This document shows, piece by piece, positions 30,146 through 53,969 of a DNA stretch of 64,000 bases. The stretch lies in assembly GCF_030384885.1 (NCBI RefSeq), contig NZ_CP128614.1, one strand, 5' to 3'. Source of the DNA: Escherichia coli. Lineage in GTDB: Bacteria > Pseudomonadota > Gammaproteobacteria > Enterobacterales > Enterobacteriaceae. The position numbers and the translations under genes were made by a program. The first letter of the stretch is position 1. Each line of letters begins with the position of its first letter. The notes under the pieces are model-generated. The model had not been told where the DNA came from. It saw only the letters and a list, made by a program, of their open reading frames with translations, and made no database searches.

Positions 30146-30172
30146 AGGAGCTGGCTTAAGTAACCGCTGAAG

Positions 30173-31220: not shown

Positions 31221-33176
31221 TTATACGACCTGCCTGACCATCCTCATCAGAAGGCGGTTTAACAGTCCTTTCGCTGTCGGGCGATTGCTATCGACATAGT
31301 AAAAACCTGTTTTGGTCGTACCGTGAGCACTGCTCAGCACCCTCAGTTCCCAGATAACGTCACGGATAACGCCGCCATTTTCTGGCTTAAGGCATTCAGA
31401 TAAATGGCGCATGAAACGAGCTCTTACGGCACGGTAATAGCGGAACTCCTCTGGCTGGTTAGTATTTTCTTTCACCCGGAGTCGCTGGTTACACAGAGTT
31501 AGAACTGCATCCATCATTCCCGCCTTCAGCTTCGCCTGGATCGCACCTTGTTGCTGTTCCCTCTCACCTTCGAGTAACGTTAAGATTCTTTCTCCGAGTG
31601 CCGTCTTGTTGTGTACGTGCAACTGTACACAGGCAGCTACGCATGCCCAGAATCTGAACTTTTTTATCTGTCCACGCAATTTCCGGGCTACAACCTGACG
31701 GTATGCAGTATCGCTGAGTATTTTAAAACGCCGACTGGCAACCAGCTCTGGAAGCGACACTCTTTCGCCTATCCCCAGGCGGGAAAAGGTTTGTCCCCGT
31801 TGTGCGAGACGATGATAGACAGCGCCCTTCCCTTTTGAAATTCGGACCGCGCCATAACGAAGAAGATACTGAGCAGCAGTCGTTGGAGTAAACTCACCGT
31901 CAGCGATGCTCTGGCGTAACCCGTCGTATTCATGCCAGATAATCCAGGACGCCGTATCTTCTTCAACAGTCAGCTCATCCTCTTCCTCGAATGCCACGAC
32001 GACAGAACTGCTCTCTCCGGTCTTTAGGCTACGTGAAGCCCTGGGGTCAGCCTGCCCGTCAAAATAGGTCATCAGCGGCAACGTATCAGTCAGTCCATCA
32101 TAAGCTGTACCGAACCGGCCTCCGGGCAGTTTCATCCAGAGTGGAGCTGGCATTGGTGTACGGGCCACAGGCAGCATGTCAGGCTCATCCTCAAGAAGGT
32201 CCAGATCGGCCTCTTCCCAGACTCTGCGATAGATCTCAATTGCCCGAAACGGGCGAGGGTTGAAACAGTGCAACGACCAGAGGAAATCAACGTGGATCAC
32301 GTTTGCTTCATGTACAAGCCGAAATTGTGGCTCAGCCATACGACGGTTATAAGCCGTATCGTCCACCTCGCCGGAAAGTAGCTTTCTGCGATGCTTTGCC
32401 GCACGTCTGGCTTCAACATAATCAAGGCTGCAACAGACATGAAAAAGACGTTCAGTCAGGGACGAAGAAAAGATATTGGGTTGAAGACGCACATACCCGC
32501 CTTCGAACACTTTACGACCGATATAATCCCGCAGGCTCCAGTCGTACTGGATCTTAGAAAGAAATCGCTGAAGACGACTTAGGCCTGCCTGATAACCATA
32601 TTTCTCAGGGTCAGTGCGAAGGAGCGTTTCCATTGAATGGTCAACCCCTACGGCTGTGCAAAGCGAGCACCCATATCTAGCCCCACAAGCTGAGGTTCGC
32701 GTGGGTTTCTCCGGCGACCAGATACACTCTCCGGTGGCGTCTTTATAAAGCGTTGCCAGGCTGAAGTTATCCGGCATAAAGCTTGGTAAAGGGAAGCGGG
32801 ATTCGGAACCACAGGCCATTAGAAAAGACCAGATGTCCTGAGTGCGCCACTCCTTTACTGGATAGAGTTCACCACCGTGCTCAGTCAGGGTTACTTTCCT
32901 CGCCTGCCCTCCCATTTTGAGGATATTTCCGGCCCTTCGGGCACTTTCATCATCCCTGGAGCCCAGCATCAGGCATACCCTGCTTCGTACGGATGCCGGG
33001 GCGTTTTTTAGATAACGAGCTTTGGCCTTGCGCAGGGGGGCGATTTTGTAGTCACAAACTACTACCACACTGTTACAGTGTAGAAATTCTGGAAGGCGGT
33101 GCCAGTGTTGGTTTAGGATAATGTTAACAATTTTTCCAGAGTTTTCAGAGAAAAGAGATTTTGAGTGACAAACCAC
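31221..33176 (-). pseudogene. PAPS-reductase-family (DndC/IbrA-like) gene lacking its N-terminal P-loop region
   Basis: 651-aa ORF with GSRDDESARR, EWRTQDIW and CGARYGCSLC motifs of the PAPS-reductase fold but no SGGKDS P-loop; in-frame stop 6 codons upstream of the annotated GTG start (read directly), so the N-terminal part is not encoded here. Confidence 0.5.
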
Positions 33177-33418
33177 TGATGTTTTCCAGAATCACTTTCT
33201 CTTAGAAGATCGATAAAGTCTGTCTATGGGGAGGATCGTCTCCCAGGGTGAAGTCAGTCCACTTCACCGAGTTGCTTCCCCATCGGTGGGTTCTTCAAAA
33301 GGGCAACATGGCCGCCCTCCAGAGGTGAACGTACCTTATGCCTATGTACCAAGCCTTAGATTCCTGATAGTTCTAAGGGCGAGAAATAGCAAACTTACTT
33401 GAAAATTGACTCTGAAAT

Positions 33419-34525
33419 TCAAGCTTCAGCTAGAATAAACTTCCGTTGCTCATCTTCGCATTTATAACATGCGAAATATTTGATTGTTTCCATATCACCA
33501 GTCACATACTCATCACAATGTGGACAGTTAACTGCTGACCATCCTCTATCAAAGCATGAAACACAACTCCACTGACCTTCAATATAGAAAACTGAATTTG
33601 GAGCGTGCTGACATACGTGACAACCAGCGACACATTCGCCACCTTCCTCCCACCAATCATCACCCGTTACATATATGTCGCGACACAATTTTATTAAGAT
33701 ATTTGTGGTGATCTCATGAGCACATTGTGGACATTTATTGATGTCAGGACTGAAAAATTCGAATGGTACTTTACAGTTTGGGCAAGGCAAAGTATCAGTG
33801 ACTTGCTCTACCGCAACGCCCTGCGATTCGCAAACAAGACATTCATAATCATCTCCCCATTTATGAGTATCATTAACTTTACCGGCTTCAAGGCCACATT
33901 GACGGCACTTAACTATTTTAATTTTTTTTAATCTTAAGACGTCAATTTCCTTTGAAAGCTCATTGAATCGGGTGCTGAGGAACTCTTTTTGTTGCAGCAT
34001 TCTCTTATGCACACGCTCAAACTCTTCCTTAAATTTAATAAATTCATCTTTCCATTCAATAGTGAGTAAATTATATAAATGGTGCCATGAAGACCATTGT
34101 TGAGCTACAACCCCTGCTTTATTAGCTTGAGCGCTTGAATATCCAGTGTGTGCAAAGTGAACAATTTGGTTCCTATGCGCACCTAACGTTCTGAACTCAT
34201 CAAGGATACTGTCATCAAGTTTAATGCCAATAACAGTTTTAAGACGTTGAACAGCGTCACTAAAATACACAGAATTAAAGTCACCAACGCTAAATTTTTG
34301 TTTATTAGCTTTGCCAGGATCATCTAATATTAAAGTCCAATGTTCGAGCATTAACCTTGCTTTTAAGAAAAGTTCAATGGCTGTATAGAAATCAACAATC
34401 GAATTTTTGGGTCTTATATTTAAATCATCAATTGACGACTCAAGAAAATCTATAGCATTTATCACTAAAGAATCAAAAAGTTGTTCATTGCTCTGTACTG
34501 TTTGCTTAATGTATGTGCGTGCCAT
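33419..34525 (-). CDS. multi-Cys zinc-ribbon protein, unknown function
   Basis: 368-aa ORF; helical N-terminal half; C-terminal half has at least six CxxC pairs (CRQC, CLVC, CPNC, CPQC, CHVC, CVSC, CPHC, CYKC); very AT-rich coding sequence. Confidence 0.5.
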   Translation of the reverse strand: MARTYIKQTVQSNEQLFDSLVINAIDFLESSIDDLNIRPKNSIVDFYTAIELFLKARLMLEHWTLILDDPGKANKQKFSVGDFNSVYFSDAVQRLKTVIGIKLDDSILDEFRTLGAHRNQIVHFAHTGYSSAQANKAGVVAQQWSSWHHLYNLLTIEWKDEFIKFKEEFERVHKRMLQQKEFLSTRFNELSKEIDVLRLKKIKIVKCRQCGLEAGKVNDTHKWGDDYECLVCESQGVAVEQVTDTLPCPNCKVPFEFFSPDINKCPQCAHEITTNILIKLCRDIYVTGDDWWEEGGECVAGCHVCQHAPNSVFYIEGQWSCVSCFDRGWSAVNCPHCDEYVTGDMETIKYFACYKCEDEQRKFILAEA

Positions 34526-35023
34526 AATGCCTCTTGATTATATTGCCCTTCGAATGTTGAACATTATATCTTTAGAGGCAATATTTTGTCACATCCCACG
34601 ATATTTTGGAGCTGAATTATTTGATCAGGCTTACACAATCTTTCTTCTCTATCCCCATTTACCTTTTGCTCTGTTACCTGCGTTGAAATGGTTGATGACC
34701 CACTAATACTGTACTCTGCCTCTTGTATAAATACATTTCAACATAAGATTGGCAAAGTAATCCTCCATAGTAGCTGCTTGAGTGGTTGATTGTCGGAATA
34801 GTGCATAGCCATTTTGGTCAGCAGAAAGCGCTGTTACCGAATGACTTGATCGTAGTACGTGTCTACTCGCCTACCAGAACTGCTGTCCTCTCATCAACTA
34901 TCTGTATAGGACCATTTGAAACATCAGATATATTTTCAGAAATCTCCTGTTAGCGTGATGGTGACTATCTTAGCTGAGAAGGATTACGAATATATTCTTA
35001 CATCATATTCTTTGAGGTGAAAG

Positions 35024-36247
35024 CTATCTATAATTTTCCAGATAGCAAGTGTCTTTGAATGCATTATAATTGCCAATTTCTTGGTTTATTTCAATTTCAT
35101 AATCTAAGCTGACAATAGGTATTTCAACACCATTTAATAAAAGAGACTCTTGATTTTTCTTCCATTTTTTGTTTTCATTCCATGCTAATTCACTTTTGTT
35201 CTCGGGGTCTCCCATTACTTCAATTTTGATACCTTTTAAAGTAAATGTACAATAAAATGATTTGATGTTTTCTGATGTGGTTTTAAACAACTCCCCTTTG
35301 ATACCAGGGTTGATTAACTTGCATATTTCATTAGCCCCTTTCTCCGTTGTTATGATATCAATATCATTTGCATAAATTTGAACGCCTTGTAAGTACCTAT
35401 TAGCCCCACCAGTTATACTCCAATCCTCCTCAATCGGTTGGAGTAATAATGTTAATTCTGTAATTGCGTCGATCAATTGTTTGCTTTGAAAGTTATTTTT
35501 ATTATAAAGCCGTTGAGCCCAGGTTTGTTTTATTTGCATACTGTGTTTTAAATAAATTGCATTATTAATGCTTGGAGCTGTAAATATCTCATGTTCGTAT
35601 TTAGAATATATGTAAGATAGATATTCTGGTGCTTTGCGATTATTAATCTCTATGAATCCATCTATTTTTTTCATCTCATTGTGGGCGTTGAAAAAACCTG
35701 ACACTTCTGAGAATAAATTATAGAAATTATTTATGACTAGCATCCCAAATATGGCGCGGCTATACTGAAAATCTAAATTATCAGTCAGCGTGGTATACAT
35801 AATAATAATTATACTAACTAGTAGTAGTATTGTTAGTAATAAATAGAATAACTTCTGCTGGAAAGCTTTAATATATAAGATAGAGTTCCAGTATGCATTC
35901 TCTTGTATGAGTGTTATTAACCTCTCTGCACGAAAGCCATTTTTATTTTCCGCATTACCATCAATGTAGAGTCGCTCTCGGTAAAAATTTTCCTCGCCTA
36001 TAATACCTCTCAGCATTTCTAATCTTTTTGTTTCTATAGCCTTAGCTGCATACGAAGTTTTAAAATGCATTGCAAACCAAGTGAGGAGTTGTATTATAAA
36101 CGTGAGGGTTGCAATACCGTAGAGCCAATGAGAATTCAAAAAAATCCCGACGATCGATAAGCAGGAAATCATTAATGTTGAATAACTGATAGACTTAGAT
36201 AAAAAGTCAACTCTATCAAAATAAAAACTACTGTTTTTTGATTCCAT
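35024..36247 (-). CDS. membrane-anchored predicted nucleotidyltransferase (4TM N-terminal domain fused to a Pol-beta-like NTase)
   Basis: 407-aa ORF; about four TM helices in the N-terminal 180 aa; C-terminal ITGGANRYLQGVQIYANDIDI fits the minimal nucleotidyltransferase motif hG[GS]-x(9-13)-DhD; AT-rich. Confidence 0.5.
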   Translation of the reverse strand: MESKNSSFYFDRVDFLSKSISYSTLMISCLSIVGIFLNSHWLYGIATLTFIIQLLTWFAMHFKTSYAAKAIETKRLEMLRGIIGEENFYRERLYIDGNAENKNGFRAERLITLIQENAYWNSILYIKAFQQKLFYLLLTILLLVSIIIIMYTTLTDNLDFQYSRAIFGMLVINNFYNLFSEVSGFFNAHNEMKKIDGFIEINNRKAPEYLSYIYSKYEHEIFTAPSINNAIYLKHSMQIKQTWAQRLYNKNNFQSKQLIDAITELTLLLQPIEEDWSITGGANRYLQGVQIYANDIDIITTEKGANEICKLINPGIKGELFKTTSENIKSFYCTFTLKGIKIEVMGDPENKSELAWNENKKWKKNQESLLLNGVEIPIVSLDYEIEINQEIGNYNAFKDTCYLENYR

Positions 36248-36582: not shown

Positions 36583-37053
36583 TCAATGATTATTTTTTTC
36601 TTCTAATTTTTTTATGACATTCCCATGCTTTTTACCACACCATGCTTGTTTCCTACCCATAATAAGCAAAACCATTGGCTCGGTCGCTTTCAGTCCGGTT
36701 CGCCAAGACCTTAGATCAGTACTTGATGGCTGTGGGAAATCTTCGGGATGCGTATGCCATTCGCCCAAATAGACTAGAAAACCGTCTGATTGCTGAAATA
36801 AGTCATCCACTTTTTGCTGGTGATGTTTGCTTTTTCTTTCTATTCGTAATCGCGATCTTATATCACCTGCGCCTGGTTCTGATATGTGGGTGATGACAAT
36901 GTGTTTCCCACGACGTTCTCCAATAAGGATTCCTCCTGCCTCGGTACTGGCATGATGTAATTGACGATATAAATACAACCGCTGCACAACATCACTCATG
37001 ATGACGACATGATTGTAATCATCATCGATAAAAACTAACTCAGTTATGTTCAT
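36583..37053 (-). CDS. cap3: CBASS Cap3 (JAB/JAMM isopeptidase)
   Basis: 156-aa ORF with EWHTHPEDFPQPSSTD (HxHx7Sx2D JAMM motif); overlaps the cap2 stop by 14 bp. Confidence 0.75.
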   Translation of the reverse strand: MNITELVFIDDDYNHVVIMSDVVQRLYLYRQLHHASTEAGGILIGERRGKHIVITHISEPGAGDIRSRLRIERKSKHHQQKVDDLFQQSDGFLVYLGEWHTHPEDFPQPSSTDLRSWRTGLKATEPMVLLIMGRKQAWCGKKHGNVIKKLEEKNNH

Positions 37054-38809
37054 TGCAGATAGGACAGTTAGGCTGATGTGGCAAAAACTGAGGTTTCAGT
37101 GAACGTCCACCTTCTAACATATGCTCGTTGTAAGTCCATTTGAGGTCAGGCTCAAGAGTACTCAAGACTGCCTGTTGAGCCAAAGATGCCGTTATATTAC
37201 TCACCGCCGCATCATAAGATGTGTATGTGCTACCACAACTTTTATTTTTTTCACTTGAGATATCGAGGTTGTAAAATCGGGAATCGATACCATTATGGTA
37301 TTTTGCTGGATTAGTAACCATACATCCATAGCAGCTTCGGCCATCATCGATTAAAACTTTGGATGCTCGTCCATTACCATCATTGAAGGCGTGGATAATA
37401 ATAGGTCTTTGCTCACAGGGAATCTGTCTTACGATAGCCGCAATACGCTTGGAAACAGGAGGTCGACCTGTTGCATCGATAATAATGTCATATTTTTTCA
37501 TAACATCAATACTGATGGGGAATTGCTTATAAAATCCTTCTACTCTGGTCTGTAAATGCACAGAGTCTTGAAGTTTTGTTGCGAGTGAGAGCGCTTTGGA
37601 CCACCCAAAATCATGTGAAGGTAAAATGTGACGACCAAAATTACTAGGACGGTAGATATCATCATCAAATAAATGCAGTAAACCTTTCCCACAACCGGCA
37701 CCGTTTCGGAGTAACAATTCTGCAATATACCCACCAATGGTTCCGCAACCAACTAAAGCTATACGCTTATCGGATAAGCATTCTTTGCTTCTCCTTTGGG
37801 CATTTCGGCTAAGGAGGGTTGCCATATCAGCGCGAACCACACCCAATCGTTTATATGAGGCGCATACATTTTTACCAGCTAACAATGTGGCAAGTTTGGA
37901 CGTTGATTTTTTAGCTGATCTCTTGTGCCTTCTGAAATCAACAGCGTTAGTATTTAACTCAATATAGATGGCAAATATATCTTGATTGAAAATGTCGAAT
38001 AAAAAAATATATCTTTTCTTCCCCTCTGTTGTGATGTAGTGAACCACTCTGTCCCTGGCATTATGGTCCGCATTTTCTAGCCAGTCCAGTAATTCGCGGA
38101 ATGAAGTCGGTGGCCATTTCATCCCAGCAAGACGATTAGGGTTTACAGAAATATAATGAGTGTTGATAGAATAATTTTTCAAAGATTCTTGACGAAGGTA
38201 TCTTTGATTAAGCCATTTTTTTAAAATGGTTTCAGAGTCCTCGGGAGAGGATTCTTGGACAGTTATATATTCTAGCCTGGGAGAACCATCAGGAAATGTT
38301 GACTCTGAAAACAGTGTCTTAAGTCTGATCCCGCGGCTTGCTTTTGATAAAATATATAAACTATCACTAGGTCGCCAGTAAGTTGCAAATTCACCTTCGA
38401 GTTCTCTCTTATCATTCAGGCCATTAGTAGCGGCTAAAACTGAATTAATCAGTGTTCGGTGAATCTGGGCATCGACTTCTTTGTACGTACCCTCAAGGTT
38501 GTTTGGATCCCAATCAGCTTCCAACTGCTCTACATAACAGAGAATTCCTTCTTGGCTTATGTGAGGCATAAGGCGATCTCTGAACTTTTCAGGCAGATCA
38601 ACTATGCAAGCTAATGGCAGTTCCGTAAAAGGATCTGGCCGAATAACTAGTGCTACATTGAAATTTCCGGCTTCGGTTTCATATTCTTTCGTATAATAGC
38701 CTTTCAGGCGTTCCTGACTGTGTAGGAACGCCTTTTCAGGAAGTTTGCGGGCTAGCGTATAGCGATACCCGCACTCTATCATCATTTTATGGAGCCTTCC
38801 TTCCTCCAT
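37040..38809 (-). CDS. cap2: CBASS Cap2 (E1/E2 ubiquitin-like conjugation enzyme fusion)
   Basis: 589-aa ORF; Rossmann/ThiF-like ALVGCGTIGGYIAELLLRNGAG in the C-terminal half; start overlaps the CD-NTase stop. Confidence 0.75.
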   Translation of the reverse strand: MEEGRLHKMMIECGYRYTLARKLPEKAFLHSQERLKGYYTKEYETEAGNFNVALVIRPDPFTELPLACIVDLPEKFRDRLMPHISQEGILCYVEQLEADWDPNNLEGTYKEVDAQIHRTLINSVLAATNGLNDKRELEGEFATYWRPSDSLYILSKASRGIRLKTLFSESTFPDGSPRLEYITVQESSPEDSETILKKWLNQRYLRQESLKNYSINTHYISVNPNRLAGMKWPPTSFRELLDWLENADHNARDRVVHYITTEGKKRYIFLFDIFNQDIFAIYIELNTNAVDFRRHKRSAKKSTSKLATLLAGKNVCASYKRLGVVRADMATLLSRNAQRRSKECLSDKRIALVGCGTIGGYIAELLLRNGAGCGKGLLHLFDDDIYRPSNFGRHILPSHDFGWSKALSLATKLQDSVHLQTRVEGFYKQFPISIDVMKKYDIIIDATGRPPVSKRIAAIVRQIPCEQRPIIIHAFNDGNGRASKVLIDDGRSCYGCMVTNPAKYHNGIDSRFYNLDISSEKNKSCGSTYTSYDAAVSNITASLAQQAVLSTLEPDLKWTYNEHMLEGGRSLKPQFLPHQPNCPICNEHN

Positions 38810-40110
38810 CAGCCGCTTACCATCGTGGTGTTAATTTTTACAGGCGCCTGCTCCTTAGACGGGGAGATTTGAAATGCAGGAGCCGCAGCAATTGAAGTTA
38901 TTAACGAGGCATTAGTTACTCGTTTTCCAAACGCATTGTTTATCTTACGTAATGCTTCTTCCCTGCTACTTGAACTCTCTGCATCAAGCAAAATCCCCTC
39001 TAAATTTCTCATGGTTTCAACGATGGTTCTCTGATGTACGTTATGATCGCATTCGGCAGGGAAAAGTAACTTTTCATCAGTATCGTCGGGACTTTCCAGA
39101 CCGCGACAGAATTCATTAGGTAGTAATCTTGCAACTAGTTTCATCGTCCCTGTGAGGTCTGAACCATTATGTGCTTCTCTGTCGAGGATGTTTACAACTG
39201 CAGCCATCAGGCTAATAGATGAAGGACCTCCCACTTCCCATTGGGCATCTCTCCAGGCCTTCATAAAGCGGCAAATTGAACGGAGATGACCGCCAATACG
39301 CTTGCAACTATCATTAAACCAATCTTCAACAATTTTGGGGTCGCTGATCGACCACCTTCTTGCACCCTGACGCAGCGCTAAATTAACTTTGTCAGGTTCT
39401 ACTAGATATGCCTCGCGCATATCCATGTTTGCTGATAAAGACTCGAACATGGAGTCGGCACTTTTTATGATGTGTGCTGAATCGGCTGCAGTTTGTTTGG
39501 TCTGAAATTGCTCTTTGGGGATCGCATACATCGGTACGTCGATGTGTGTTTTCTCGTGAGGAATTTTGATGCGTCCGCAGGTGTTTTTTTCTTCATATAC
39601 CCATCCATCGTTTTCAGCCTCTAACGATTTCAGTGACGTATCAACGAGCAGAAGAAGTAAGGTGTGCCCAATACTGGGTTCGGATTCAAAGACCGTCATT
39701 GGCATGTAGGTGCCGTCATCGATATCCATTTCCTGACCCGGGTGAAAAGGTCTGTTTAACGTATCGTATTGAAAACTCCCTTGGGTCCAGAAGCGAGGTT
39801 GAAATTTGATGAAGTCATCACGAGCTACATCTTCCATTTCAAAAATGAGTCGAGCGAGAGTCTCACGGTCTGAGGGAGAGAGGTAGCGAACATTAGTTTG
39901 CTCCAGTTTAAATCTAACGCTTTCAAGCGTCAGAGTTTGCTTTCTGGCGTCTGTAGCAATTTGACGAGCTTCTTTAAACACATCCCTCGTTCTTTCACGG
40001 ACTTTCTGGCGAAGTGCTTTCAGTTTGTCGGATTCAGTCTTACCCAATTTTAGTTTACTGATTAAGCCATCCACACTATGGCTGTAGTAATTGTTAAAAT
40101 CCCAACGCAT
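38809..40110 (-). CDS. dncV: CD-NTase, DncV-like cyclic dinucleotide synthase
   Basis: 433-aa ORF; NTase motif QGSFQYDTLNRPFHPGQEMDIDDG; long stretches match Vibrio cholerae DncV as recalled (MRxxWNFxxYY N-terminus, RFWTQGSFQYDTLNRPF, C-terminal NxAFGxRVTN...STMVSG). Confidence 0.85.
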   Translation of the reverse strand: MRWDFNNYYSHSVDGLISKLKLGKTESDKLKALRQKVRERTRDVFKEARQIATDARKQTLTLESVRFKLEQTNVRYLSPSDRETLARLIFEMEDVARDDFIKFQPRFWTQGSFQYDTLNRPFHPGQEMDIDDGTYMPMTVFESEPSIGHTLLLLLVDTSLKSLEAENDGWVYEEKNTCGRIKIPHEKTHIDVPMYAIPKEQFQTKQTAADSAHIIKSADSMFESLSANMDMREAYLVEPDKVNLALRQGARRWSISDPKIVEDWFNDSCKRIGGHLRSICRFMKAWRDAQWEVGGPSSISLMAAVVNILDREAHNGSDLTGTMKLVARLLPNEFCRGLESPDDTDEKLLFPAECDHNVHQRTIVETMRNLEGILLDAESSSSREEALRKINNAFGKRVTNASLITSIAAAPAFQISPSKEQAPVKINTTMVSG

Positions 40111-41180
40111 CAGTGGATCTCCTGCGCATTCATGCGCTTAAAGGGTTTTGCGGGAGTAGTGAAAAAATTCTTAAGCTTCTGATCTTGAGCGAACTCAACA
40201 TTGGCGAGCTGCCTTCCCCTTGCGCTTAAATTTTCAAGGGAACTCTTCGTGGCATTATCCAGGGTGATATCACTGGCTGCTTCATTGGGGATAATTTCAT
40301 CCAGGTAGATGTAGTTATCCACCGCGTCATGGAGCATAAGCTCACGCTGTAGCATATTTTTATGAAGATGCTGGTTAGCTGTCATGGTTGTAAGCACCAG
40401 CCGTTTTCCCATACCCCAGAGACGACAGTAGCCATTCCACCATGTTTTGCTCAACAACTTTGGACTAAGTGAATACTCTTCACCAACAGTACCGATATTA
40501 AGTATATGTATGTCTTTATGGGTGACGCTGAAGTCAGAATTCATATCCCTGAAAACTTCCAGAAGTCCTATGTAGCTGGGGTTGTTTGCGACCAGACCAC
40601 CATCGGCAAAATATGCGCGGAGATCCTCACAATAGTGTGGGGAAAAATACGTTGGCGCGGCTGAGGTTGCCAGTGCGGCATCTATCAATTTAAGAGGCCC
40701 ATCACGAGTAAAATCTGGGTTGTGTGGTGTCTTGAAAAACTGCGGTTTTCCTGTTGAAAGGTTTACTGCCGGGATCATTACTCGCCGGGTTAGGTCATTG
40801 AATGTGGTTTCAGCCCCAATCATTTCTTGAATTGTTTCGCGAAGAGGATGGCTGCGGTAGATAGGAGCACAAAGTGATCTAAGCAAGTTGGTCAGGGACC
40901 ATCTTTTGGGAAAAATGTCATTCGCCCTATCGAAGAACACTCGTTCCAGCTCACGGGCACTTTTTCCTGTAGCAAGGCCGAGAGCTAATATGCCGCCTAT
41001 TGATGTCCCTGTAATGAGGTCAAAATAATCGCCAATTTTAATATCCTGATTAGGGTATTTGCTGGCAAGTATCCTCTCAATCTCAGAAAGGACACTGATC
41101 GTAAACATTCCCCTGGCCCCCCCGCCATTAAGACTTAGTATCCGCACGCCATAGTGATTTCCTGCACTTATGTCAGACAT
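40110..41180 (-). CDS. capV: CBASS effector CapV (patatin-like phospholipase)
   Basis: 356-aa ORF with patatin motifs GGGARG (oxyanion), GTSIGG (GxSxG nucleophile) and DGG; stop overlaps the dncV start. Confidence 0.85.
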   Translation of the reverse strand: MSDISAGNHYGVRILSLNGGGARGMFTISVLSEIERILASKYPNQDIKIGDYFDLITGTSIGGILALGLATGKSARELERVFFDRANDIFPKRWSLTNLLRSLCAPIYRSHPLRETIQEMIGAETTFNDLTRRVMIPAVNLSTGKPQFFKTPHNPDFTRDGPLKLIDAALATSAAPTYFSPHYCEDLRAYFADGGLVANNPSYIGLLEVFRDMNSDFSVTHKDIHILNIGTVGEEYSLSPKLLSKTWWNGYCRLWGMGKRLVLTTMTANQHLHKNMLQRELMLHDAVDNYIYLDEIIPNEAASDITLDNATKSSLENLSARGRQLANVEFAQDQKLKNFFTTPAKPFKRMNAQEIH

Positions 41181-41630
41181 AGCCAGCTCCCCTCGGAAAG
41201 ATAGCTATAAGATATGTCCGCTTTTGTAGTTTTCAATGTACAAATAACCAGCAAATTTGAAATATGGTTAAAATAACTGCGTTATGGAAATTAATTGAAT
41301 ATTAATTCTTATTTTTGTTTTCCTGATGGAATTAAAATCTAAGTATGTCATTTTCTGGCTAATTTTACGAAAGGAAAATCCATGGCACATGCAGCCATCA
41401 CCTCACTCAGTCTTGGCTACATGAAACAATCTTGGTGTTATCACCGGTGAGCAAGGAATTGAGAGCTAAGCCTTGAAACAGAGGCATATGTGGGAAAGTC
41501 AGTGGAAAAAATGATGGATCCTAATCTCCCTGTTCAATCGTAACGAATTATCGCCCTTTACTCTTTTCCAGATCCGACTTGGATGTTGTTCATCCAGGCC
41601 GCTAAACGTTGCTGTCGCCGGGCCATCTCG

Positions 41631-41927
41631 TCACCATTTCTCCTGTCTGGCGGGCAAATTTTCCAAAGATTTATTCTCTCCCGACGGCATCATTTCTGAT
41701 GAATTTGCCATCGATGAAAGGCTGATTTCTACTCCCAGCACGGTAAACACTTTGAACAGGCGTTCAATACTCGCACTGGCTGGATTGGCCTCCAGACGAG
41801 CATAGGTTTGCTGGGTCACACCTAACCTTTCAGAGACGTCTTTTTGCGTCAGCCCATTCGCTTTACGAAAGCCAAGCAGCATTGGACGCAATTGGGTAAG
41901 TATTTTTATCGGATAAACATTTTTCAT
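41631..41927 (-). CDS. HipB-like XRE-family HTH regulator
   Basis: 98-aa ORF; LGFRKANGLTQKDVSERLGVTQQTYARLEANPASASIERLFKVFTVLGVEISL aligns with E. coli HipB as recalled; no hipA-like gene follows; lies 450 bp upstream of capV on the same strand. Confidence 0.6.
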   Translation of the reverse strand: MKNVYPIKILTQLRPMLLGFRKANGLTQKDVSERLGVTQQTYARLEANPASASIERLFKVFTVLGVEISLSSMANSSEMMPSGENKSLENLPARQEKW

Positions 41928-42201: not shown

Positions 42202-42600
42202 TTGTTACCTTGTATCATCAGGATGCCGTTGACTGTGTTTATCAGCCGTGAAGTCATTTCCAGAATCGTGCTTATCATCATGGCTGTTGCCGTGCTGAGC
42301 AGTTCGCTTATGGTAAAACCACAGGCTGTCTACAATCTCCAGGATACAACATCCATCAGTGACCATCAGCACGACAGCGATGAACCGCTGAATGAGCACG
42401 ATCCGTTACAGTTCCACTCGCACGGTAATGTGCATCACCTCAATGCCGATCATTCCCACGATCTGAACAAACTCTTCACGCTGACTGCTTTGCAGGCCTG
42501 GAACGCAGGCATGCGGGCGACGTTCGCGCTAAGTTCAGAACAAATCCTGCGGGTCCCCCAGGCGACCCCCGAACGCCCTCCGAGATCCCTGATTGCGTAA
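42202..42600 (+). CDS. His-rich secreted or membrane protein (possible metal binding)
   Basis: 132-aa ORF with a hydrophobic N-terminus and His/Asp-rich segment HQHDSDEPLNEHDPLQFHSHGNVHHLNADHSHD. Confidence 0.35.
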   Translation: MLPCIIRMPLTVFISREVISRIVLIIMAVAVLSSSLMVKPQAVYNLQDTTSISDHQHDSDEPLNEHDPLQFHSHGNVHHLNADHSHDLNKLFTLTALQAWNAGMRATFALSSEQILRVPQATPERPPRSLIA

Positions 42601-42643
42601 TAACTTCCGTTAATTCGTTATTATTCAATTTGTAAGGGTTTTT

Positions 42644-43043
42644 ATGAATACCAGCCTCGATATACAGGGCCGGTTGAACGGTGGCCTGCTTTCAGCTCAG
42701 GCGCGTTCGGCTTGTCTGTTTTTCCTGTTGTTACTGCTTTTCTACAGCCAGGGCGCGTATGCGCACGACGTGGCGGAGGGCGACAAAGGGTACATCCAGG
42801 AAATCACCGGGATTATCGTCAATGCACAAAGGAGCGTGGGTAACGCTGGAAGGTAATGTTATCAGCCAGCAGGATGAGTGGTACACCTTCCGTGATCCAA
42901 CCGGCACCATCAAAGTGCGCATTCCTCAGAAGGTCTGGAACGGGCAGCACTTCGATGCTCAGGATTTGGTGCGGGTGAGTGGGCAGGTAATTCATGAGAA
43001 TGGTGCTACGAGCCTTGATGTAGGTGTGATTAGCAAGCCCTGA
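42644..43043 (+). pseudogene. YgiW/YdeI (BOF, OB-fold) family periplasmic protein, frameshifted
   Basis: signal peptide in frame 1 (42644..42856) and the OB-fold body (AWVTLEGNVISQQDEWYTFRDPTGTIKVRIP...) in another frame (to 43043); frames switch near 42820-42850. Confidence 0.5.
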
Positions 43044-43547: not shown

Positions 43548-43572
43548 GAAGTCATCATCATTGCCTTAGAGT

Positions 43573-43623
43573 ACTTAGATTGTCTAAGTTTCGTTGGTTT
43601 CTGTATACTTAGCAATTCTAAGT
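43573..43623. promoter_or_regulatory. two 17-bp palindromic operators in the divergent promoter region
   Basis: ACTTAGAttgTCTAAGT (43573-43589) and ACTTAGcaattCTAAGT (43607-43623), same half-sites, 17 bp apart, between the XRE gene and the helicase-operon start. Confidence 0.6.
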
Positions 43624-43646
43624 TTACTGATTTGGAAGTTTTAACA

Positions 43647-45975: not shown

Positions 45976-45992
45976 TGAAAAGAAGTGAATGC

Positions 45993-46433
45993 TTATTTTA
46001 TTCTTACTATCTGGCCTTGTTTTAAAGCTTTTATCTCTTGTTCCAGCGCTTCAATACGTGAACGTGCAACCCTCAGCGCATGGGAGAGCTGATGATGTTC
46101 AGCCGCCATCACTTCCAGACGACGTTTCATATCAGATGCTTTTACACGGTACTGAATTTTCACTTTACGCTCTTGGTTAAATTTATGTCGCAGGGCTTCC
46201 TGTGACTGATGAGTTAGCCTGCCCTGAGGGGATATTTTTAACCGCAGAATTTCCTCCTGGACGCGTGACTTAAATGCCCCGTAGTAGTAACAGGTTCCGT
46301 TTCCCAGCCCGGCCTCCTCTTCAACAGCACGCACCGACAACTTTCGGTTGTCAGGGATACGTTTTGTCTGACCATCAAGGATCCGTTGTAGTGCAGCTTC
46401 AAGTTTAAGGAGTGTATTTTCTGATTTGCTCAT
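45993..46433 (-). CDS. small coiled-coil protein downstream of the recombinase genes
   Basis: 146-aa ORF overlapping the stop of the 720-aa gene by 4 bp. Confidence 0.45.
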   Translation of the reverse strand: MSKSENTLLKLEAALQRILDGQTKRIPDNRKLSVRAVEEEAGLGNGTCYYYGAFKSRVQEEILRLKISPQGRLTHQSQEALRHKFNQERKVKIQYRVKASDMKRRLEVMAAEHHQLSHALRVARSRIEALEQEIKALKQGQIVRIK

Positions 46434-48592
46434 ACGCCTGTCACCTTAATGGGATGTTCATATGTGTCATAGCCAATCCCATGATCCTGCATAACCCGTT
46501 CCGCAGCCCGGATTTGAGTGATACAGTGGGCATACTCACTGATGCTTAGATCCGTCTGTTGCTGAAGATACATTATCAAAGCATTATGACGTTGCTGCCA
46601 CCACATGGCCTTATCCGTATCGATAATGCTTCCACCGCTACGACAATCCACGCAGAATGCAGGGTTGACCACACCATCCATATCGCAGTCATAGCCGTTT
46701 TTGCAGTAACTATGTAGCGTTCCATGCAAAGTAAGTCGTTTTTCCCTGACCAGTCGATAGAGATTATCCCAGCTACTGTAGATCACAGGCTTATCATTAC
46801 GCATAGCTAGAATGGCTTTGCCAAAACTTCCGCTGAGTTGACTATCCCCGTTAAACCAGCTGTCAAAAAGACTAGTTGTCTGTTCGAGCCTTGCTTCATT
46901 CAGTAATTTAATCAGTTCGCTGTCCACCTGTATTGATTGTAGCCGTGCTTCAACAGCACCGTTCCCATACCATTCACTCATTCGCAGGCTGAGGTGTTTA
47001 AACTGTTGTTTGATTGCGATGGGGTGTCCGAGCTGGTTACGTACGGCAAAGCAGGCGAAAGTTCTTCGAAACTGATGGGTTAAAAGGGGCCAGGCCTCTC
47101 CTGTTCTGATCTTATCTTCTATAGCCCCCCTGTCCCGAGGGTTAAGCTGACGGCACTCTGCGAGTGCCTGTTTATCAACAATAGCACCCACATGTCTGGA
47201 AAAATTTTTTAAACGGTCGTTCCACTTGCTGCGTGAAATGAGGACAGGCAGGTTTTTTCTTTGGTACTGGCTGAGCCACAGATTTCCTGCTGTCTCAGTA
47301 AGCGTATCAGACTGCCCTGGGTCGTTGCTGTGAACCGCTATTTTTAACAGCTGTTCACGAGCACACGCGCTGAGAGCCGTCGCAAGCGATATGGCTTTTT
47401 CAACAATAGGGCTTGCCAGCCATTCTTCATTTTTTTTCCCGGCAGCCAGTTTGTGGGTTGCTGCGCTTACCGAGTGAAAATCCTGTCCATTAATGGTGTA
47501 GGTGTGAAAACTGTCCACATGCAATTCAAATATTTCGCTGACTCTCATTCCTGTGAAAGCACCACAACAAATAAAACAGGCTGCCTGAAGTTGAGCACGA
47601 AAACTGACGAGCCAGTTACCGTCTGCTGCGCTACTGGGCAGGAGTCCTGTTCCGGTGAGATGGTTTTTGATTAGGGTATTTTGCGACCGGGGTGTCGCTT
47701 TATTAATTTCTTCTACATATTCTTTTGAACATAATTTCCCCTGTCCGTTAGTCAGCCATGTCCACTTACCTGTAAGTATTTTATAGTCAACAACGGCACG
47801 CCCGATATCATAATTAGACTGCAGTTCACGTTCTAGCTGGGCTAGTGTTTCTCTGTGGGGCCATGCAAGCTCGACAAGTCTAACGGCTTCTCCATAGAGT
47901 ATATTTGCTATTGCCTGGGGGATGGCCAGGGTTTGCCTGTGTTCTGCTTTATTTTTAGCTGACAGTTTTTTGGCTGTCTGTTTGTAGTTCAGCTGTGGCA
48001 GGTCAAGCTGGAAAGGAAGCCATGAATTTAGTCTTTCGACTGACTGTAGTGCAGAGAAAATCAATTCAACAGTTCGCTTACTAAAGGCTTCACGTTCGAT
48101 ATCGTTTTGTAGCTTTTGCCATATCTCGGGTTTATTGAAGTCAGACAGGCACGTGCTGCCACTATGCAAAAGCGTTAATAAACTCTTTTTTAACCCTAAA
48201 TTGAATCGGGAGGTCAGTGTTGACAGCTTGCAGTCTTTTCCGGAGTGATAATTTTGCTCAAATATCCATCCATATACGATAAGCTTCGCCTGAAGGAGAA
48301 GCGCCGGAGCGGACTCCAAATAGGTAAAGTTAAATTCACGCTGGTTTTTATCCGTTCCCTTATCTGAAGCAAAGGGGCTACAGTCCCAGCAATTTTGACC
48401 AAAATATGCTCGCGTGATGTTATGTTTATCGATACATATTGGGAGCTTATCGAGCGCAGACCAGTTTTTGTTTTTTATCAGAAGTAAAATATCTTCTGTG
48501 GCTCCATACGTCAGAGCGTCTTTATGAAATGAGTTCAACAGAATAGCCATAGTGATCCTTATGTCATATCTGTGCTTTGCACATCTGACCAC
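46430..48592 (-). CDS. tyrosine-recombinase-like protein (third of three tandem genes)
   Basis: 720-aa ORF with AFTGMRVSEIFEL (box I Arg) and LTHQFRRTFACFAV (HxxR) in the C-terminal half. Confidence 0.55.
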   Translation of the reverse strand: MVRCAKHRYDIRITMAILLNSFHKDALTYGATEDILLLIKNKNWSALDKLPICIDKHNITRAYFGQNCWDCSPFASDKGTDKNQREFNFTYLESAPALLLQAKLIVYGWIFEQNYHSGKDCKLSTLTSRFNLGLKKSLLTLLHSGSTCLSDFNKPEIWQKLQNDIEREAFSKRTVELIFSALQSVERLNSWLPFQLDLPQLNYKQTAKKLSAKNKAEHRQTLAIPQAIANILYGEAVRLVELAWPHRETLAQLERELQSNYDIGRAVVDYKILTGKWTWLTNGQGKLCSKEYVEEINKATPRSQNTLIKNHLTGTGLLPSSAADGNWLVSFRAQLQAACFICCGAFTGMRVSEIFELHVDSFHTYTINGQDFHSVSAATHKLAAGKKNEEWLASPIVEKAISLATALSACAREQLLKIAVHSNDPGQSDTLTETAGNLWLSQYQRKNLPVLISRSKWNDRLKNFSRHVGAIVDKQALAECRQLNPRDRGAIEDKIRTGEAWPLLTHQFRRTFACFAVRNQLGHPIAIKQQFKHLSLRMSEWYGNGAVEARLQSIQVDSELIKLLNEARLEQTTSLFDSWFNGDSQLSGSFGKAILAMRNDKPVIYSSWDNLYRLVREKRLTLHGTLHSYCKNGYDCDMDGVVNPAFCVDCRSGGSIIDTDKAMWWQQRHNALIMYLQQQTDLSISEYAHCITQIRAAERVMQDHGIGYDTYEHPIKVTGV

Positions 48593-50334
48593 AGGGGATG
48601 TCGTCCTTCATCAGCAAGTTTTCGACGGGCATGTTGTAGTGTTTTTTGATTCAGTAATTTCAGCCTGCTATCAATGTTTACGATGGTCTGGCCAAAGTTT
48701 TTTGTGTAATGGGCTTTATCCAGGTGAAGGTATTGTGATTCTTCCAGATATTCACGGAAGCTTAACACGCACCATAAATCCGTTACTGATTCGACCAGAA
48801 CCTGATGTTTGCAACTCCAGCAGTTTAACAGGTCAGCACAAGCCAGCGTTTCTTCCGGGGGGATCAGCCCGTTTCTCCTGGCCCGGGAAGTGAACATCGT
48901 GGCCATTGTACCAGCCGTGTCGTTACAATAACTTCCATGGGAGTTTCGTACGGGAGGCGATGCTCTTCTGACATAGGCCTCATATGCCAGCACGCTGACC
49001 TTTTGTGCTTCACGTACTTTCTGTTTTGCAGATTCAATACTCTGCCTGTCCCGGACAACCTGTTCCAGTGTCTGGCTGGTATCCCGGTTCATTTGATTGT
49101 TCTCGTAGGGGTTACCATCAGAATATGCCTGACGGATAGTTTCGGGGGTATTATCAAGCAGTAGTGCAGCCTCGACCGGGCCCTTCAGCGCCAGTGTCAG
49201 ATGACTGCCGGTGGCCCGAAAGCGCCTGGTGACCGGCCACAGCCTTTGCCCTAAGTCGTCTGTCATGGGGAAGTGTACAGAGAGCCAGCTACTTTTGAAG
49301 TCATTCAGCAGGCAGGAACTCATCATCTGGACGCTTTTTTTCCGATGACTATAGGTCGGTAAGAGCAGGCCATCCGGGCCGGGGTCTAACAACGTTGACG
49401 CAGTAATGAGCTGGTCAAAAAACTGTGTTGCGTATTTGGGTATTTCCAGCCGATTGTTGTCACCTATCTCAACAGAGATTGTTTTAAATGCCCGGCGCTT
49501 AAAGGCTGGCATCTGATGCCAGTTATCTGATGGTGTATGGCTGCTGAGTGTCGGTCTTTTTAATGTGTACAGGATGGAGCTGTTGCTCCATGTGTAATAA
49601 CTGAGCAGGTATGCGGCTGCATAAAATAATTTTGATACACCGCTGCGTACAGGATACGTTTTCCCTTTCCAGCAAAAAGTCATTGTTGCTGTGATACCGC
49701 TGGCTTTGATATGTGAATCTGGGTCAAGAATAAACTGGGAGTAAAGTTGCCTGAACAGTCCTCTTAGTAAAGGGAGTAATTTTTTCAGGTCACCATCGCT
49801 ATATCCTCGTGTGGGCTCTGATTGTGTATTTCCCGGGTTTTTAAACCCTGACGTAAACTTTGTACTCCGCCCCATCCAGTTGTATAAGGTTGTCAGGTCT
49901 GCCTTTATCCTGGAGGCTGTGCTGTCTTTGATTTCGCCCCTCCTTTGACGAAGTAAATGACATTTCAACTCTCTGATGAACGTGCTCTCAGACAGGGGGA
50001 TAAGTGCTGGCACCTGACTGTCACAGAAAGTAAAATGCTTTCTTGCAGCATTAAAAATATTATACTTTGTTGCAGGTGTGACATCTTCATGGCCAGTAAT
50101 TGCAATAAACAGTGACTGTACAATGTCATCCCGTGCCAGTAATTGCTCATCCCCCTGTTTTATCAGGTTGGTTTTGGGTATGCCCTTATAGCGAAAGCGG
50201 TTAAAATCTAACAGGGTATGAGCATTGGCGCCATTGCGTATTGGTATACAGAGGTGTTCAACCCAGGGCGTTGTGAGTTTTAATTTGCTGCTCATACTTT
50301 CACTCCAGTAGTGCTCTGTGCATAATTTCATCAA
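48559..50334 (-). CDS. recombinase-module protein (second of three)
   Basis: 591-aa ORF overlapping both neighbours; catalytic motifs not clearly readable. Confidence 0.45.
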   Translation of the reverse strand: MMKLCTEHYWSESMSSKLKLTTPWVEHLCIPIRNGANAHTLLDFNRFRYKGIPKTNLIKQGDEQLLARDDIVQSLFIAITGHEDVTPATKYNIFNAARKHFTFCDSQVPALIPLSESTFIRELKCHLLRQRRGEIKDSTASRIKADLTTLYNWMGRSTKFTSGFKNPGNTQSEPTRGYSDGDLKKLLPLLRGLFRQLYSQFILDPDSHIKASGITATMTFCWKGKTYPVRSGVSKLFYAAAYLLSYYTWSNSSILYTLKRPTLSSHTPSDNWHQMPAFKRRAFKTISVEIGDNNRLEIPKYATQFFDQLITASTLLDPGPDGLLLPTYSHRKKSVQMMSSCLLNDFKSSWLSVHFPMTDDLGQRLWPVTRRFRATGSHLTLALKGPVEAALLLDNTPETIRQAYSDGNPYENNQMNRDTSQTLEQVVRDRQSIESAKQKVREAQKVSVLAYEAYVRRASPPVRNSHGSYCNDTAGTMATMFTSRARRNGLIPPEETLACADLLNCWSCKHQVLVESVTDLWCVLSFREYLEESQYLHLDKAHYTKNFGQTIVNIDSRLKLLNQKTLQHARRKLADEGRHPLWSDVQSTDMT

Positions 50335-51679
50335 GCATAGAGATTTTTTCTTTCAGGGCTTCTTTAGTTTTTAGATAGCGTAAATACTTCCATGTTGTTG
50401 ATTCATTTTTATGCCCCATCCATTGCATCAGCAGGCTGAGTGCATCGGCAGGCTCTATGCCCGCAGTAAGTAGACTGTACAGGCGATACGTTGCATAACT
50501 GCACCTCAGGTCATGAAACTTATGGTCAAATGCGATCCCTGAATTAATCATTTTTTTTCGCAATTCACCAAATCGGGCACCCGTGCTCTGTGGGGTACAG
50601 GGGGAGCCCTGCTGACTAATAAATAAGGGTTCATTTTGAATGGCAGAAACTAAAGATTCAGATCTGATTTTGTCTGAAAAGAGTGTTCCGGGTACGGTTT
50701 TTATTTCTTGCTGACCCATTTTTAACATCGCTTTAATACGCATCTGTAATTTATCAAAGCGGGTCATTCTTCTTTCGCTAATGGCATAGTGCTGTAATTT
50801 ATCTAAAAGAGTATTAGTTATTTCAATCGTTCTTGTTTTATTATATTTAGTGGGTACACCGTTACTAGGTCCAATAGTGATTTCGTAGTGGGTACGTGAT
50901 TCGGTTCTTTGTACAGCCTGATTTAACGCAGTTAAGGTAAATCCTGTGGCTTCTTCAATTCTGAGCCCACATTGTGCTGCCAGCAGACAAATAAGCTGCA
51001 TTTCAACTGAGGTCTGGCTAAGATGGATTGCAAATTCTGTAAGCATTGTTTGCGAAAGTGGTGATAATCTGCGAATATTCAGACTGTTAGAGTCTTTAGG
51101 GACCCTGATACGTAAATCCGTTGTCTGTACGAAAAATTTTGGCTTCATATGTGCCAGTATGTCGTTATTTCTGAATCTGACAAATTCTATGTCAAAGGGT
51201 TTGTTTGTTTCCGTTACCGGAAAGTAGTGCTCATACGCTGCCCAGAGATAGAACTGTACAAGATGACATATATAGGTATTAGCCGTGGAAAAAGCGATTT
51301 CTCCAGTTTTGACCTTTTTTAGCAGCCCATCATTACGGTAGCGATAGGCAGGTTTTAATGCTTTTACTGCAGGAAAGTTATCCCATGCAAGTTCTTCAGA
51401 CTCCAAAAAGCACCAGTAAAATTTTAACGCTCTTGCATAAGAGCTAAGGTTTTCCAGTCTTTTTTCAGCTTTGAGATGTATAAGCCATTGATTTACAGGT
51501 TCTATATAATTACCATCATAACCATACAATGTAGGAAGTGGACCCACATTTCGTCCCCCCCTGAATTCAATCGATTCATCTGTAGTAATGATATCACCAC
51601 CAATAAATACATCTGCTGAGTTGAGTAAATAAGCCAAGAATGCAGACCTCCAATGGTTGTAAACTTCTGCCATGCTCAT
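50300..51679 (-). CDS. tyrosine recombinase / integrase (first of three)
   Basis: 459-aa ORF with CGLRIEEATG (box I Arg), HKFHDLRCSYATY (HxxR) and C-terminal WKYLRYLK Tyr region. Confidence 0.65.
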   Translation of the reverse strand: MSMAEVYNHWRSAFLAYLLNSADVFIGGDIITTDESIEFRGGRNVGPLPTLYGYDGNYIEPVNQWLIHLKAEKRLENLSSYARALKFYWCFLESEELAWDNFPAVKALKPAYRYRNDGLLKKVKTGEIAFSTANTYICHLVQFYLWAAYEHYFPVTETNKPFDIEFVRFRNNDILAHMKPKFFVQTTDLRIRVPKDSNSLNIRRLSPLSQTMLTEFAIHLSQTSVEMQLICLLAAQCGLRIEEATGFTLTALNQAVQRTESRTHYEITIGPSNGVPTKYNKTRTIEITNTLLDKLQHYAISERRMTRFDKLQMRIKAMLKMGQQEIKTVPGTLFSDKIRSESLVSAIQNEPLFISQQGSPCTPQSTGARFGELRKKMINSGIAFDHKFHDLRCSYATYRLYSLLTAGIEPADALSLLMQWMGHKNESTTWKYLRYLKTKEALKEKISMLDEIMHRALLE

Positions 51680-52783: not shown

Positions 52784-53032
52784 TTATGAGTATACGCCAT
52801 GCTCTAAACGCAAAATTAATGATACGACCATTAAACCTCCCTCTTCAGGGTCAATGGCTTCAGTGGGTGTTTTCCAGGCTAATGCTCTGTTAGAGGTATT
52901 GCACCATTTCAAAGCAGAATCTCTGTTCCCCTCAAAAAGCGCTAACGCTTTTAGATGTAGAACACTTTTGGTCATCATCTGTGATCCTGAATGACTTTTT
53001 AGTACTTCAAAAAGGTTGCTTCGTAGAGTCAT
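52784..53032 (-). CDS. DUF2384-like protein (toxin-binding domain of Xre/ParS/MbcA-type antitoxins)
   Basis: 82-aa ORF; DSALKWCNTSNRALAWKTPTEAIDPEEGGLMVVSLILRLEHGVYS fits the recalled DUF2384 consensus (W..P.ALGG.P..L..T..G...V...L.RIEHG); no RES-type partner ORF downstream; palindromic motif 115 bp upstream. Confidence 0.5.
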   Translation of the reverse strand: MTLRSNLFEVLKSHSGSQMMTKSVLHLKALALFEGNRDSALKWCNTSNRALAWKTPTEAIDPEEGGLMVVSLILRLEHGVYS

Positions 53033-53146
53033 TGTTTCGGGTCGTTACGAACTCAACTGTGGCAACCTTGCTTGTCATGATTTCCGAACCTACCTGTCGG
53101 GGCACAGATAATGCCAGCAAAGATACTATTCCATACGCTATCCCAA

Positions 53147-53157
53147 AAAGTTACTTT
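53147..53157. promoter_or_regulatory. palindromic motif AAAGTTACTTT, copy 7
   Basis: 115 bp upstream of the gene starting at 53032. Confidence 0.5.
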
Positions 53158-53396
53158 TCTATAGCAACCTAAACCAGTGTGGTTGTGACCAGTCCCCGGT
53201 ATTAAACACCATAGTCAGTTAGTAATATCAGTTTTCTTTCTTTATCCCATTTTGCCAGTCTATTGCAAACTCCGCTGGCGTCAGAAAATTCAGTGAGGAA
53301 TGAGGCCGACATGCTCTGCACTCTGACCTGATAGCATAAAAAAACTGGCTTTTTAGGCCAGTTTTACAGAGTTGCAAAGGTGTAGGTATAGTTTTT

Positions 53397-53969
53397 CTAC
53401 ACTAACGTGTCATGGTAGGTTGAGCACTGACGGGTTGAAGAATTAGTCCAGGTCGGAAGTCCACGTCCAGTCAGAATGCGGCCTACCCAGCTCTGCGTAA
53501 GAGACGGTTGGGCGACAAGGACTGTGACCGGTAGCTGGTGTTCAGCAATGAACATTCTAAGCTGGTTGAGAACCTGTGAAGCCTGATAGTGCATCTCAGG
53601 GTTTTCGATCAGCGTATCGGACATCTGAATGAAATGATGTTCGCTGATATTTGTGCCGTTACGTACTGCCCTGATCAATGCCATCAGAAATAGGTGAAGA
53701 AGAGAATGGGAGTCTTTACCGCCACTGTATCCCACGCACATCGTCCATCCGTCCGTAATAGCCTGATAAATAGCAGATGTGGCTGACGTGACCAGAGAAG
53801 AAAGACTCACAGTCTCCTTTTCATCGGTATAGTTCAGATCGGCATCGGTTGTCAGGGTCTCCCAAACATCAGCCCATTTATCATGTTTCAAAATGGCAGC
53901 ATTAGCCGCCTCAGGAAAAATAACTTCTGAGGGTAATTCAAGGAATGAGTCACTTTTTTCAATAAACAT
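53397..53969 (-). pseudogene. N-terminal fragment of a PAPS-reductase-family (DndC/IbrA-like) gene
   Basis: 190-aa ORF with P-loop YSGGKDS and DT/PE motif (SDTLIENPE) but none of the downstream fold motifs; those are found in the 31221..33176 ORF. Confidence 0.5.

Follow-up and report, generated by a model that had tools for sequence, protein, structure and literature searches.

A strand-biased circularizing integrative element probably splits a DndC-like gene of an IncHI2 plasmid, and its 6-bp scars imply exchange with a chromosomal site at gor

The 64,000-nt stretch of Escherichia coli DNA analysed here (contig NZ_CP128614.1; referred to below as the window) contains a plasmid gene that lies in two pieces on either side of an island, which we assign to the SEs (strand-biased circularizing integrative elements). 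Both pieces are read from the minus strand. The open reading frame (ORF) at 53397..53969 encodes a PP-loop (GYSGGKDS) and has the C-terminal end ...RQCSTYHDTLV*. The ORF at 31221..33176 has a GTG start, with a stop 6 codons before it, and encodes the motifs GSRDDES, W..DIW and CGARYGCSLC. When compared with the DndC profile TIGR03183, the two fragments cover positions 7-112 and 135-289, which are complementary and do not overlap, and their coverage of PRK06850 (positions 15-133 and 153-305) is complementary as well. The initial annotation of this DNA had read the first ORF as only the N-terminal P-loop part of such a protein and the second as its downstream motifs behind an in-frame stop, and both descriptions were borne out; the recombinase, helicase, CBASS (cyclic oligonucleotide-based antiphage signalling system) and AT-rich modules that it had placed between the fragments are all located in the interval.

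Junction alignment and direct reading show that homology to the plasmid backbone ends at 33053 on the left and restarts at 53418 on the right. Each flank matched about 250 E. coli records at 99-100%, nearly all of them large plasmids, and in these the two flanks abut. About 240 E. coli IncHI2 plasmids match either flank at >=99% and have no insert. Removal of 33054-53417 (20,364 bp) restores one 2,385-nt gene, and the 794-codon ORF obtained by joining 53969..53418 to 33053..31221 agrees at every nucleotide with the intact gene of plasmid pMCR_W5-6 (0 mismatches; a coding sequence of 2,385 nt, 794 aa, named "phosphoadenosine phosphosulfate reductase family protein"). The gene is broken precisely between T184 and D185 (RQCST|DYK). 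The 5' fragment of the target gene, which includes the PP-loop, comprises codons 1-184 of the 794-aa protein (53418..53969, minus strand), its ORF continuing for 6 element-derived codons to 53397; the 3' fragment comprises codons 185-794 and the stop (31221..33053, minus strand), the listed ORF start at 33176 being 123 nt into the element. Element-derived sequence thus makes up the initial 41 codons of the "C-terminal" ORF and the final 6 of the "N-terminal" one. As there is neither duplication nor loss of target sequence, and as the rejoined gene is free of mismatches, we consider the insertion to have been simple, precise and recent. Alignment to full-length DndC-type proteins and comparison with related genomes had been proposed as checks in the initial annotation; the DndC profile gave the complementary coverage described above, and the comparison of genomes an intact gene and an empty site in E. 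coli plasmids, from which the sharper split point was obtained. Its suggestion that a DndC/IbrA-like gene had been split by a recombinase-bearing element is borne out by the clean 184|185 break, the rejoining without mismatches and the insert-free plasmids.

What kind of element is it? SE-EasCA1043 was described from the chromosome of Enterobacter asburiae CAV1043 (Idola et al. 2023, PMC10214605, Additional files 6 and 8), and its published termini are C = TACACTAACGTGTCATGGTA and C' = ACTGTAACAGTGTGGTAGTA (PMC10214605, Additional file 6). Both were found at the ends of the island with 20/20 matches, motif C at 53398..53417 on the plus strand, which is the intA-proximal end, and motif C' at 33060..33079 on the minus strand. 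When aligned, the two ends form an imperfect inverted repeat; of the repeats for which a search at the junctions had been suggested, this one was present at the termini, and 10-11-nt flanking direct repeats were absent. The 6-bp rule of SEs is satisfied as well. The central 6 bp of the target, GGTTGA at 53418..53423 (TCAACC in element orientation), stand beside motif C at attL and form the "fingerprint", while the "footprint" from the previous site, ACAAAC at 33054..33059 (GTTTGT in element orientation), stands beside C' and replaces the second copy of the target hexamer. This foreign footprint is identical to the native 6 bp at gor. The element is 20,358 bp long with 42.0% GC, versus 20,288 bp and 42.02% for the published SE-EasCA1043, and the published lengths of Tfp (578 aa) and Srap (146 aa) equal those of the genes called here (PMC10214605). 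We thus read 33060-53417 as an SE, essentially SE-EasCA1043, which together with its footprint at 33054-33059 is integrated between codons 184 and 185 of the 794-aa DndC-like gene of an IncHI2 plasmid, and we put the probability of this reading at about 0.9. It needs to be mentioned that item 7 of Additional file 6, in the text extracted from the PDF, gives the attR published for SE-EasCA1043 with 7 nt, TCAACCC, between C' and the sequence shared with attB; the attB shown there is from another strain and is 1 nt shorter, and all junctions read here fit 6 bp.

The recombination genes form a co-directional tandem module, intA-tfp-intB-srap, running from 51679 to 45993 at one end of the element and encoding proteins of 459, 578, 706 and 146 aa. 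IntA (50300..51679, minus strand) is a tyrosine recombinase matched by integrase models of Pfam and PHROGs, and IntB (46430..48550, minus strand; 706 aa as called) is a large tyrosine recombinase matched by a PHROG integrase model. Read by eye, both possess the R, HxxR and H..Y motifs (GLRIEE, HDLRCS and GH...KYL in IntA; GMRVSE, HQFRRT and KH...EWY in IntB). Tfp (48559..50295, minus strand; 578 aa as called) has no integrase signature in Pfam, PHROGs or PDB, and its full-length homologs are found on Vibrio plasmids at about 37% identity; sequence searches of PDB with IntB and Tfp returned noise only. Srap (45993..46433, minus strand) gave no profile match, and the identical sequence is widespread in the Enterobacter cloacae complex. 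The element also contains an orphan Xre/MbcA/ParS (DUF2384-type) antitoxin-like gene (52784..52978, minus strand; 64 aa as called, within an 82-aa ORF that reaches 53032). In every copy this gene lies between motif C and intA and lacks a RES toxin partner. It may encode a regulator of the SE module.

Among the plasmids in PLSDB, the whole element was found only in pMY490-mcr-9 (E. cloacae, IncHI2A), at the same insertion site, and none of the complete E. coli genomes contained it. Look-ups of the exact proteins provided about 20 further junctions, most of them chromosomal, between rsmJ-gor and treF. An exact scan of species-representative genomes with the terminal motifs gave no match, and a metagenome scan with them gave 3 loci only, 1 at gor and 2 belonging to other elements which share motif C'. 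The chromosomal neighbour was identified as gor at 785.6 bits (cutoff 480). The 9 chromosomal left junctions that were sampled all border on the 3' end of gor, their own hexamer being GTTTGT in 8 and ATTTGT in 1. At these attL sites (loci L014-L023, ~2740-2790) the left end of the element makes the Gor C-terminus ...EEFVTMTR* instead of the native ...EEFVTMR*. Because the element end rebuilds the C-terminus of Gor, gor can be regarded as a neutral home site, whereas insertion at the plasmid site destroys its gene.

The hexamers at these two kinds of site are reciprocal. Plasmid copies have the plasmid gene's own TCAACC beside C, and their scar is GTTTGT (the window and pMY490) or ATTTGT (L005). 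In chromosomal copies the scar beside C' is TCAACC at 6/10 right junctions and TCTACC or TCTACG at the other 4/10, the minority scars standing at attR of L006, L010, L013 and L025. At residues 183-184 of the plasmid gene, TCAACC, TCTACC and TCTACG all encode Ser-Thr and differ only by synonymous changes, which hints that the chromosomal scars might come from diverged donor alleles. As each SE copy takes along the central 6 bp of the site it came from, the plasmid copies would have come from gor and most chromosomal copies from the plasmid gene, and the reciprocal hexamers thus imply shuttling between chromosome and plasmid. Element DNA is 100% or nearly 100% identical between hosts whose flanks differ. 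pMY490-mcr-9, L020 and L005 have the same element at the identical nucleotide, and their gene allele diverges from that of the window by about 3%, with differences within 10-25 nt of both junctions; differences so close by make independent insertions at one nucleotide more likely than recombination. Near-identical elements within differing flanks and differing gene alleles support recent and repeated traffic. In terms of mechanism, published work on SEs suggests that IntA and IntB, together with Tfp and Srap, would copy out a circle by recombination between attL and attR, the 6-bp spacer of this circle deriving from the bases beside motif C. Integration of this circle would leave the target's own 6 bp at attL and deposit the old spacer at attR.

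The same plasmid gene has received other insertions. In Klebsiella oxytoca NZ_CP115680.1 (IncHI1B type; L003, 15001-34099) a variant of SE-EasCA1043 is located between codons 118 and 119 of a 793-aa ortholog, in the opposite orientation and with the gor scar GTTTGT. Identity is 89-96% in the cargo, the core module is diverged, the termini are near-identical, and the variant bears an ISKpn26 insertion; many plasmids match the reconstructed empty site at 100%. The codon 118|119 variant is also present in K. michiganensis CP124767.1. A second, unrelated SE of about 38 kb interrupts the gene at nt 947 (ARYGCSL|CCAVG). It is carried by p56322CZ_VIM4 and by IncHI2 plasmids, L037 for example, and was seen as well in NZ_CP091812.1 (from L031, 4766, to L032, ~2630), L051 and L052. 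It encodes IntA WP_007897923.1 and Srap WP_017384060.1 and has frmRAB, a uvrA paralog and a KAP NTPase as cargo; its tfp-srap pair is among those in Additional file 3 (PMC10214605). When PLSDB was searched with a 401-nt probe over gene nt 750-1150, about 341 of 1,264 matching plasmids (~27%) had no single match covering 80% of it, and among the partial matches listed, the start is at about nt 934. The chromosomal home of the second SE is inside a YgiQ-type radical-SAM gene, in the coding sequence of a Cys motif (MRGCFGGCS|FCS), and its two targets are clearly alike (G[G/A]TGCTC..T.TG), both encoding G-C-S-F/L-C. Its hexamers are reciprocal too: plasmid copies have GCTCGC beside C and the scars GCTCCT, GTTCCT or GCTCAT, all of which are ygiQ alleles at chromosomal left junctions, and the scar GCTCGC is present in 8/9 chromosomal copies. 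A fourth SE, on the IncHI2A plasmid pCTX-M_SCLZS19 of Enterobacter kobei (L036, ~9000-24200), is situated near trhU, outside the DndC-like gene, and therefore this gene is a favoured but not the sole site for SEs. Genes annotated as caspase-family, EAD1 and GTPase-associated (GASH) lie beside that fourth SE.

It is worth recalling that the chromosomal safe site of Tn7 is a neutral one at a gene's 3' end, and that Tn7 inserts into conjugative plasmids for its spread, by means of a DDE transposase with the dedicated target selectors TnsD and TnsE. The two-target lifestyle is shared with the element described here; the tyrosine recombinases and the use of one specific gene as the plasmid target are not. 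One may speculate that the IncHI DndC-like gene, conserved and dispensable, is no accidental target but a plasmid way-station that two or more unrelated SE lineages share, with three positions in use, in a Tn7-like two-target life cycle of these transfer-deficient elements, either because SE specificities converged on it or because loss of the gene is advantageous to the element or to the plasmid. We regard this idea as tentative and rather doubtful at present. The coupling sequences of Tn916 are six bases picked up at its previous site, which move along with it and keep a record of where it has been, and this logic allows the same reading of the 6-bp scars; Tn916 itself is a self-transmissible integrative and conjugative element with one integrase and Xis.

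Several points weigh against an SE that moves between gor and the plasmid gene. Circularization and strand bias are, for this element, predictions drawn from published SEs, and any current activity is putative. The plasmid target resembles the gor target only weakly, and no convincing consensus was found among the three targets of SE-EasCA1043-type elements. Neither TCTACC nor TCTACG, that is, the scars at 4/10 chromosomal right junctions, occurs among the seven plasmid alleles read, which have TCAACC, TCTACA and GCTACA only. Finally, the chromosomal copies may be partly clonal, and the count of independent transfers is uncertain. One could also ask whether the reciprocal hexamers reflect traffic between sites at all, as they might be a coincidence, or a fixed spacer of the element might select matching targets. 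The sample of only a few tens of junctions and the scars TCTACC, TCTACG and GTTCAC, for which no matched donor is available, speak for such a possibility. On the other hand, a chance match of a hexamer has a probability of about 1 in 4096 and was seen in both directions, and a fixed spacer predicts an identical hexamer at both junctions, which is not seen. Moreover, allelic variants track together, ATTTGT being both a gor allele and a plasmid scar, just as the three ygiQ alleles recur as plasmid scars of the second SE (GCTCCT, GTTCCT, GCTCAT). We consider an explanation free of traffic to be improbable.

As for the identity of the insert, three tyrosine-recombinase-like genes with a small fourth one at one end are also what would be expected of a GInt (genomic island with three integrases; ginABCD), and an element of this kind, a RIT (recombinase in trio) element or a conventional integrase island had to be weighed against an SE. 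GInts further resemble this island in their variable cargo, in site-specific insertion into genes and in a 6-nt staggered exchange that takes flanking bases along. However, in ginABCD the degenerate recombinase is the third protein, GinC, and 10-11-nt imperfect direct repeats flank the element (Bardaji et al. 2017, PMC5385486), whereas here the signature-less protein is the second one, as Tfp is in SEs, and no such repeats are present. The protein families are distinct, with SE and GInt proteins clustering separately, and neither the termini, identical to those of a published SE, nor the Tfp and Srap lengths of 578 and 146 aa, the same as in SE-EasCA1043, fit a GInt. Any identity other than an SE is very unlikely in our opinion; that of a GInt was dropped on the position of the signature-less protein and on comparison of the SE and GInt literature. 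Still less credible, to the point of being almost negligible, is the view that the ORFs stem from two paralogs truncated independently, or from a complex rearrangement, with the island merely lying between them. This alternative had been raised in the initial annotation, and the ORFs are indeed 20 kb apart, each with its own start or stop, but the fragments are contiguous, non-overlapping and not diverged, they rejoin in frame with 0 mismatches, and their flanks are collinear with insert-free plasmids. The objection to a simple insertion that had been drawn from the DUF2384-like gene fails, because this gene belongs to the element, and all chromosomal copies examined have it.

The island is thus best compared with known SEs. 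With SE-EasCA1043 it shares the 20-nt termini C and C', size class, GC content, core module and a chromosomal home beside gor, and the accessions of the cargo proteins named in pMY490-mcr-9 belong to one block with those of the published Tfp and Srap. It differs in that the window copy resides in the DndC-like gene of an IncHI2 conjugative plasmid, has the scar GTTTGT rather than TCAACC, and probably inactivates its target rather than rebuild it. The experimentally characterised SE-6283 and SE-6945, from Vibrio alfacsensis and plasmid pSEA1, have the same intA-tfp-intB-srap order, terminal inverted repeats that are imperfect, and the 6-bp rule, and they occur on a conjugative plasmid as well as on the chromosome. 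Their proteins are distant (Tfp is ~37% identical to Vibrio-plasmid homologs), their hosts and targets are different, and their cargo is a beta-lactamase, versus defence genes here.

The target protein has a PAPS-reductase/PP-loop domain (Pfam E = 3.7e-5; about 1e-38 for the DndC-type models of PADLOC), and the remaining ~430 aa C-terminal to it gave no profile match. The intact protein scores below the cutoff of the DndC equivalog TIGR03183 (117.6 bits vs 290.4 required). None of the neighbours of the gene (hypothetical proteins, an HNH endonuclease, DUF6012) is a dnd partner, and no recognisable IbrB/ParB-like partner was found, the 263-aa upstream neighbour having no Pfam or NCBIfam match and the 149-aa one no NCBIfam match. 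By its sequence, then, the target gene is to be called DndC-like in fold only. A literature search for a link between this gene and IncHI2 plasmids returned nothing relevant. Its neighbourhood (28856-30669 and 54142-56310; L001) consists of conserved IncHI backbone genes encoding an HNH endonuclease, DUF6012, DUF957 and DUF3085, with a DNA methyltransferase gene upstream of it. In several E. coli plasmids, IS1203, IS21 or IS5 insertions occur near the target gene.

The remaining part of the element is cargo. Next to the recombination genes lies a helicase module composed of an XRE-type helix-turn-helix (HTH) gene (43236-43547, minus strand), a gene for a 225-aa protein (43539-44216, plus strand) and a DEAD/DEAH helicase gene (44204-45598, plus strand). 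It is followed by a remnant of a nickel-resistance cluster (42202..43043, plus strand), with a HupE/UreJ-like ORF and a YgiW/NcrY-like OB-fold protein; the region 42160-43050 is 88-93% identical to nickel/cobalt-resistance (ncr) clusters on many Klebsiella and Enterobacter plasmids. A type II CBASS, including an upstream HTH gene (41631-41927), spans 36583..41927, all on the minus strand. It is complete, as the CD-NTase, Cap2, Cap3 and effector were all matched at scores that exceed the curated cutoffs: capV phospholipase (40110-41180; CapV lipase, 366.1 bits, cutoff 200), a cGAS/DncV-like cyclase (38809-40110; cGAS, 331.7 bits, cutoff 150), the E1/E2 protein of cap2 (37040-38809; PADLOC E1-E2 model, 910 bits) and the JAB protein of cap3 (36583-37053; Cap3, 259.7 bits, cutoff 200). 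No relevant literature was found that ties a CBASS to this island. The C' end is occupied by an AT-rich gene pair (33419..36247, 32-38% GC, minus strand). It encodes a 407-aa protein (35024-36247), named a nucleotidyltransferase-domain protein in the sources and weakly matching a 4TM-effector, and a 368-aa HEC-08/DUF3644 candidate defence protein (33419-34525). This HEC-08/nucleotidyltransferase-like pair is kept in all copies and is possibly an uncharacterised defence pair.

What are the likely consequences of this insertion? The target gene would be inactivated, because its PP-loop is parted from the rest of the fold. The conjugative plasmid would in turn gain CBASS and other candidate defence genes, and as the element has no transfer genes of its own, the plasmid would serve as its vehicle. 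The element itself is a copy of an already catalogued member of a recently defined class, and not a new kind of system. Beyond the literature searched are the plasmid target site, the reciprocal scars for two SEs and the repeated use of one IncHI backbone gene. For the window, the result is a tidy annotation, one intact gene recently interrupted by a known type of element. SEs were described in 2021-2023 and thought to be non-mobilizable, and their spread between cells is an open point on which the scars bear: at the level of sequence, the junctions are evidence for one IncHI backbone gene as a stop-over between chromosomes for two different SEs, one of which carries CBASS and other candidate phage-defence genes. 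The second SE appears to have disrupted this gene in about a quarter of its PLSDB carriers. The 6-bp scar offers a simple genomic marker for tracing SE transfers, and the repeated loss of an uncharacterised DndC-like plasmid gene may be meaningful in itself.

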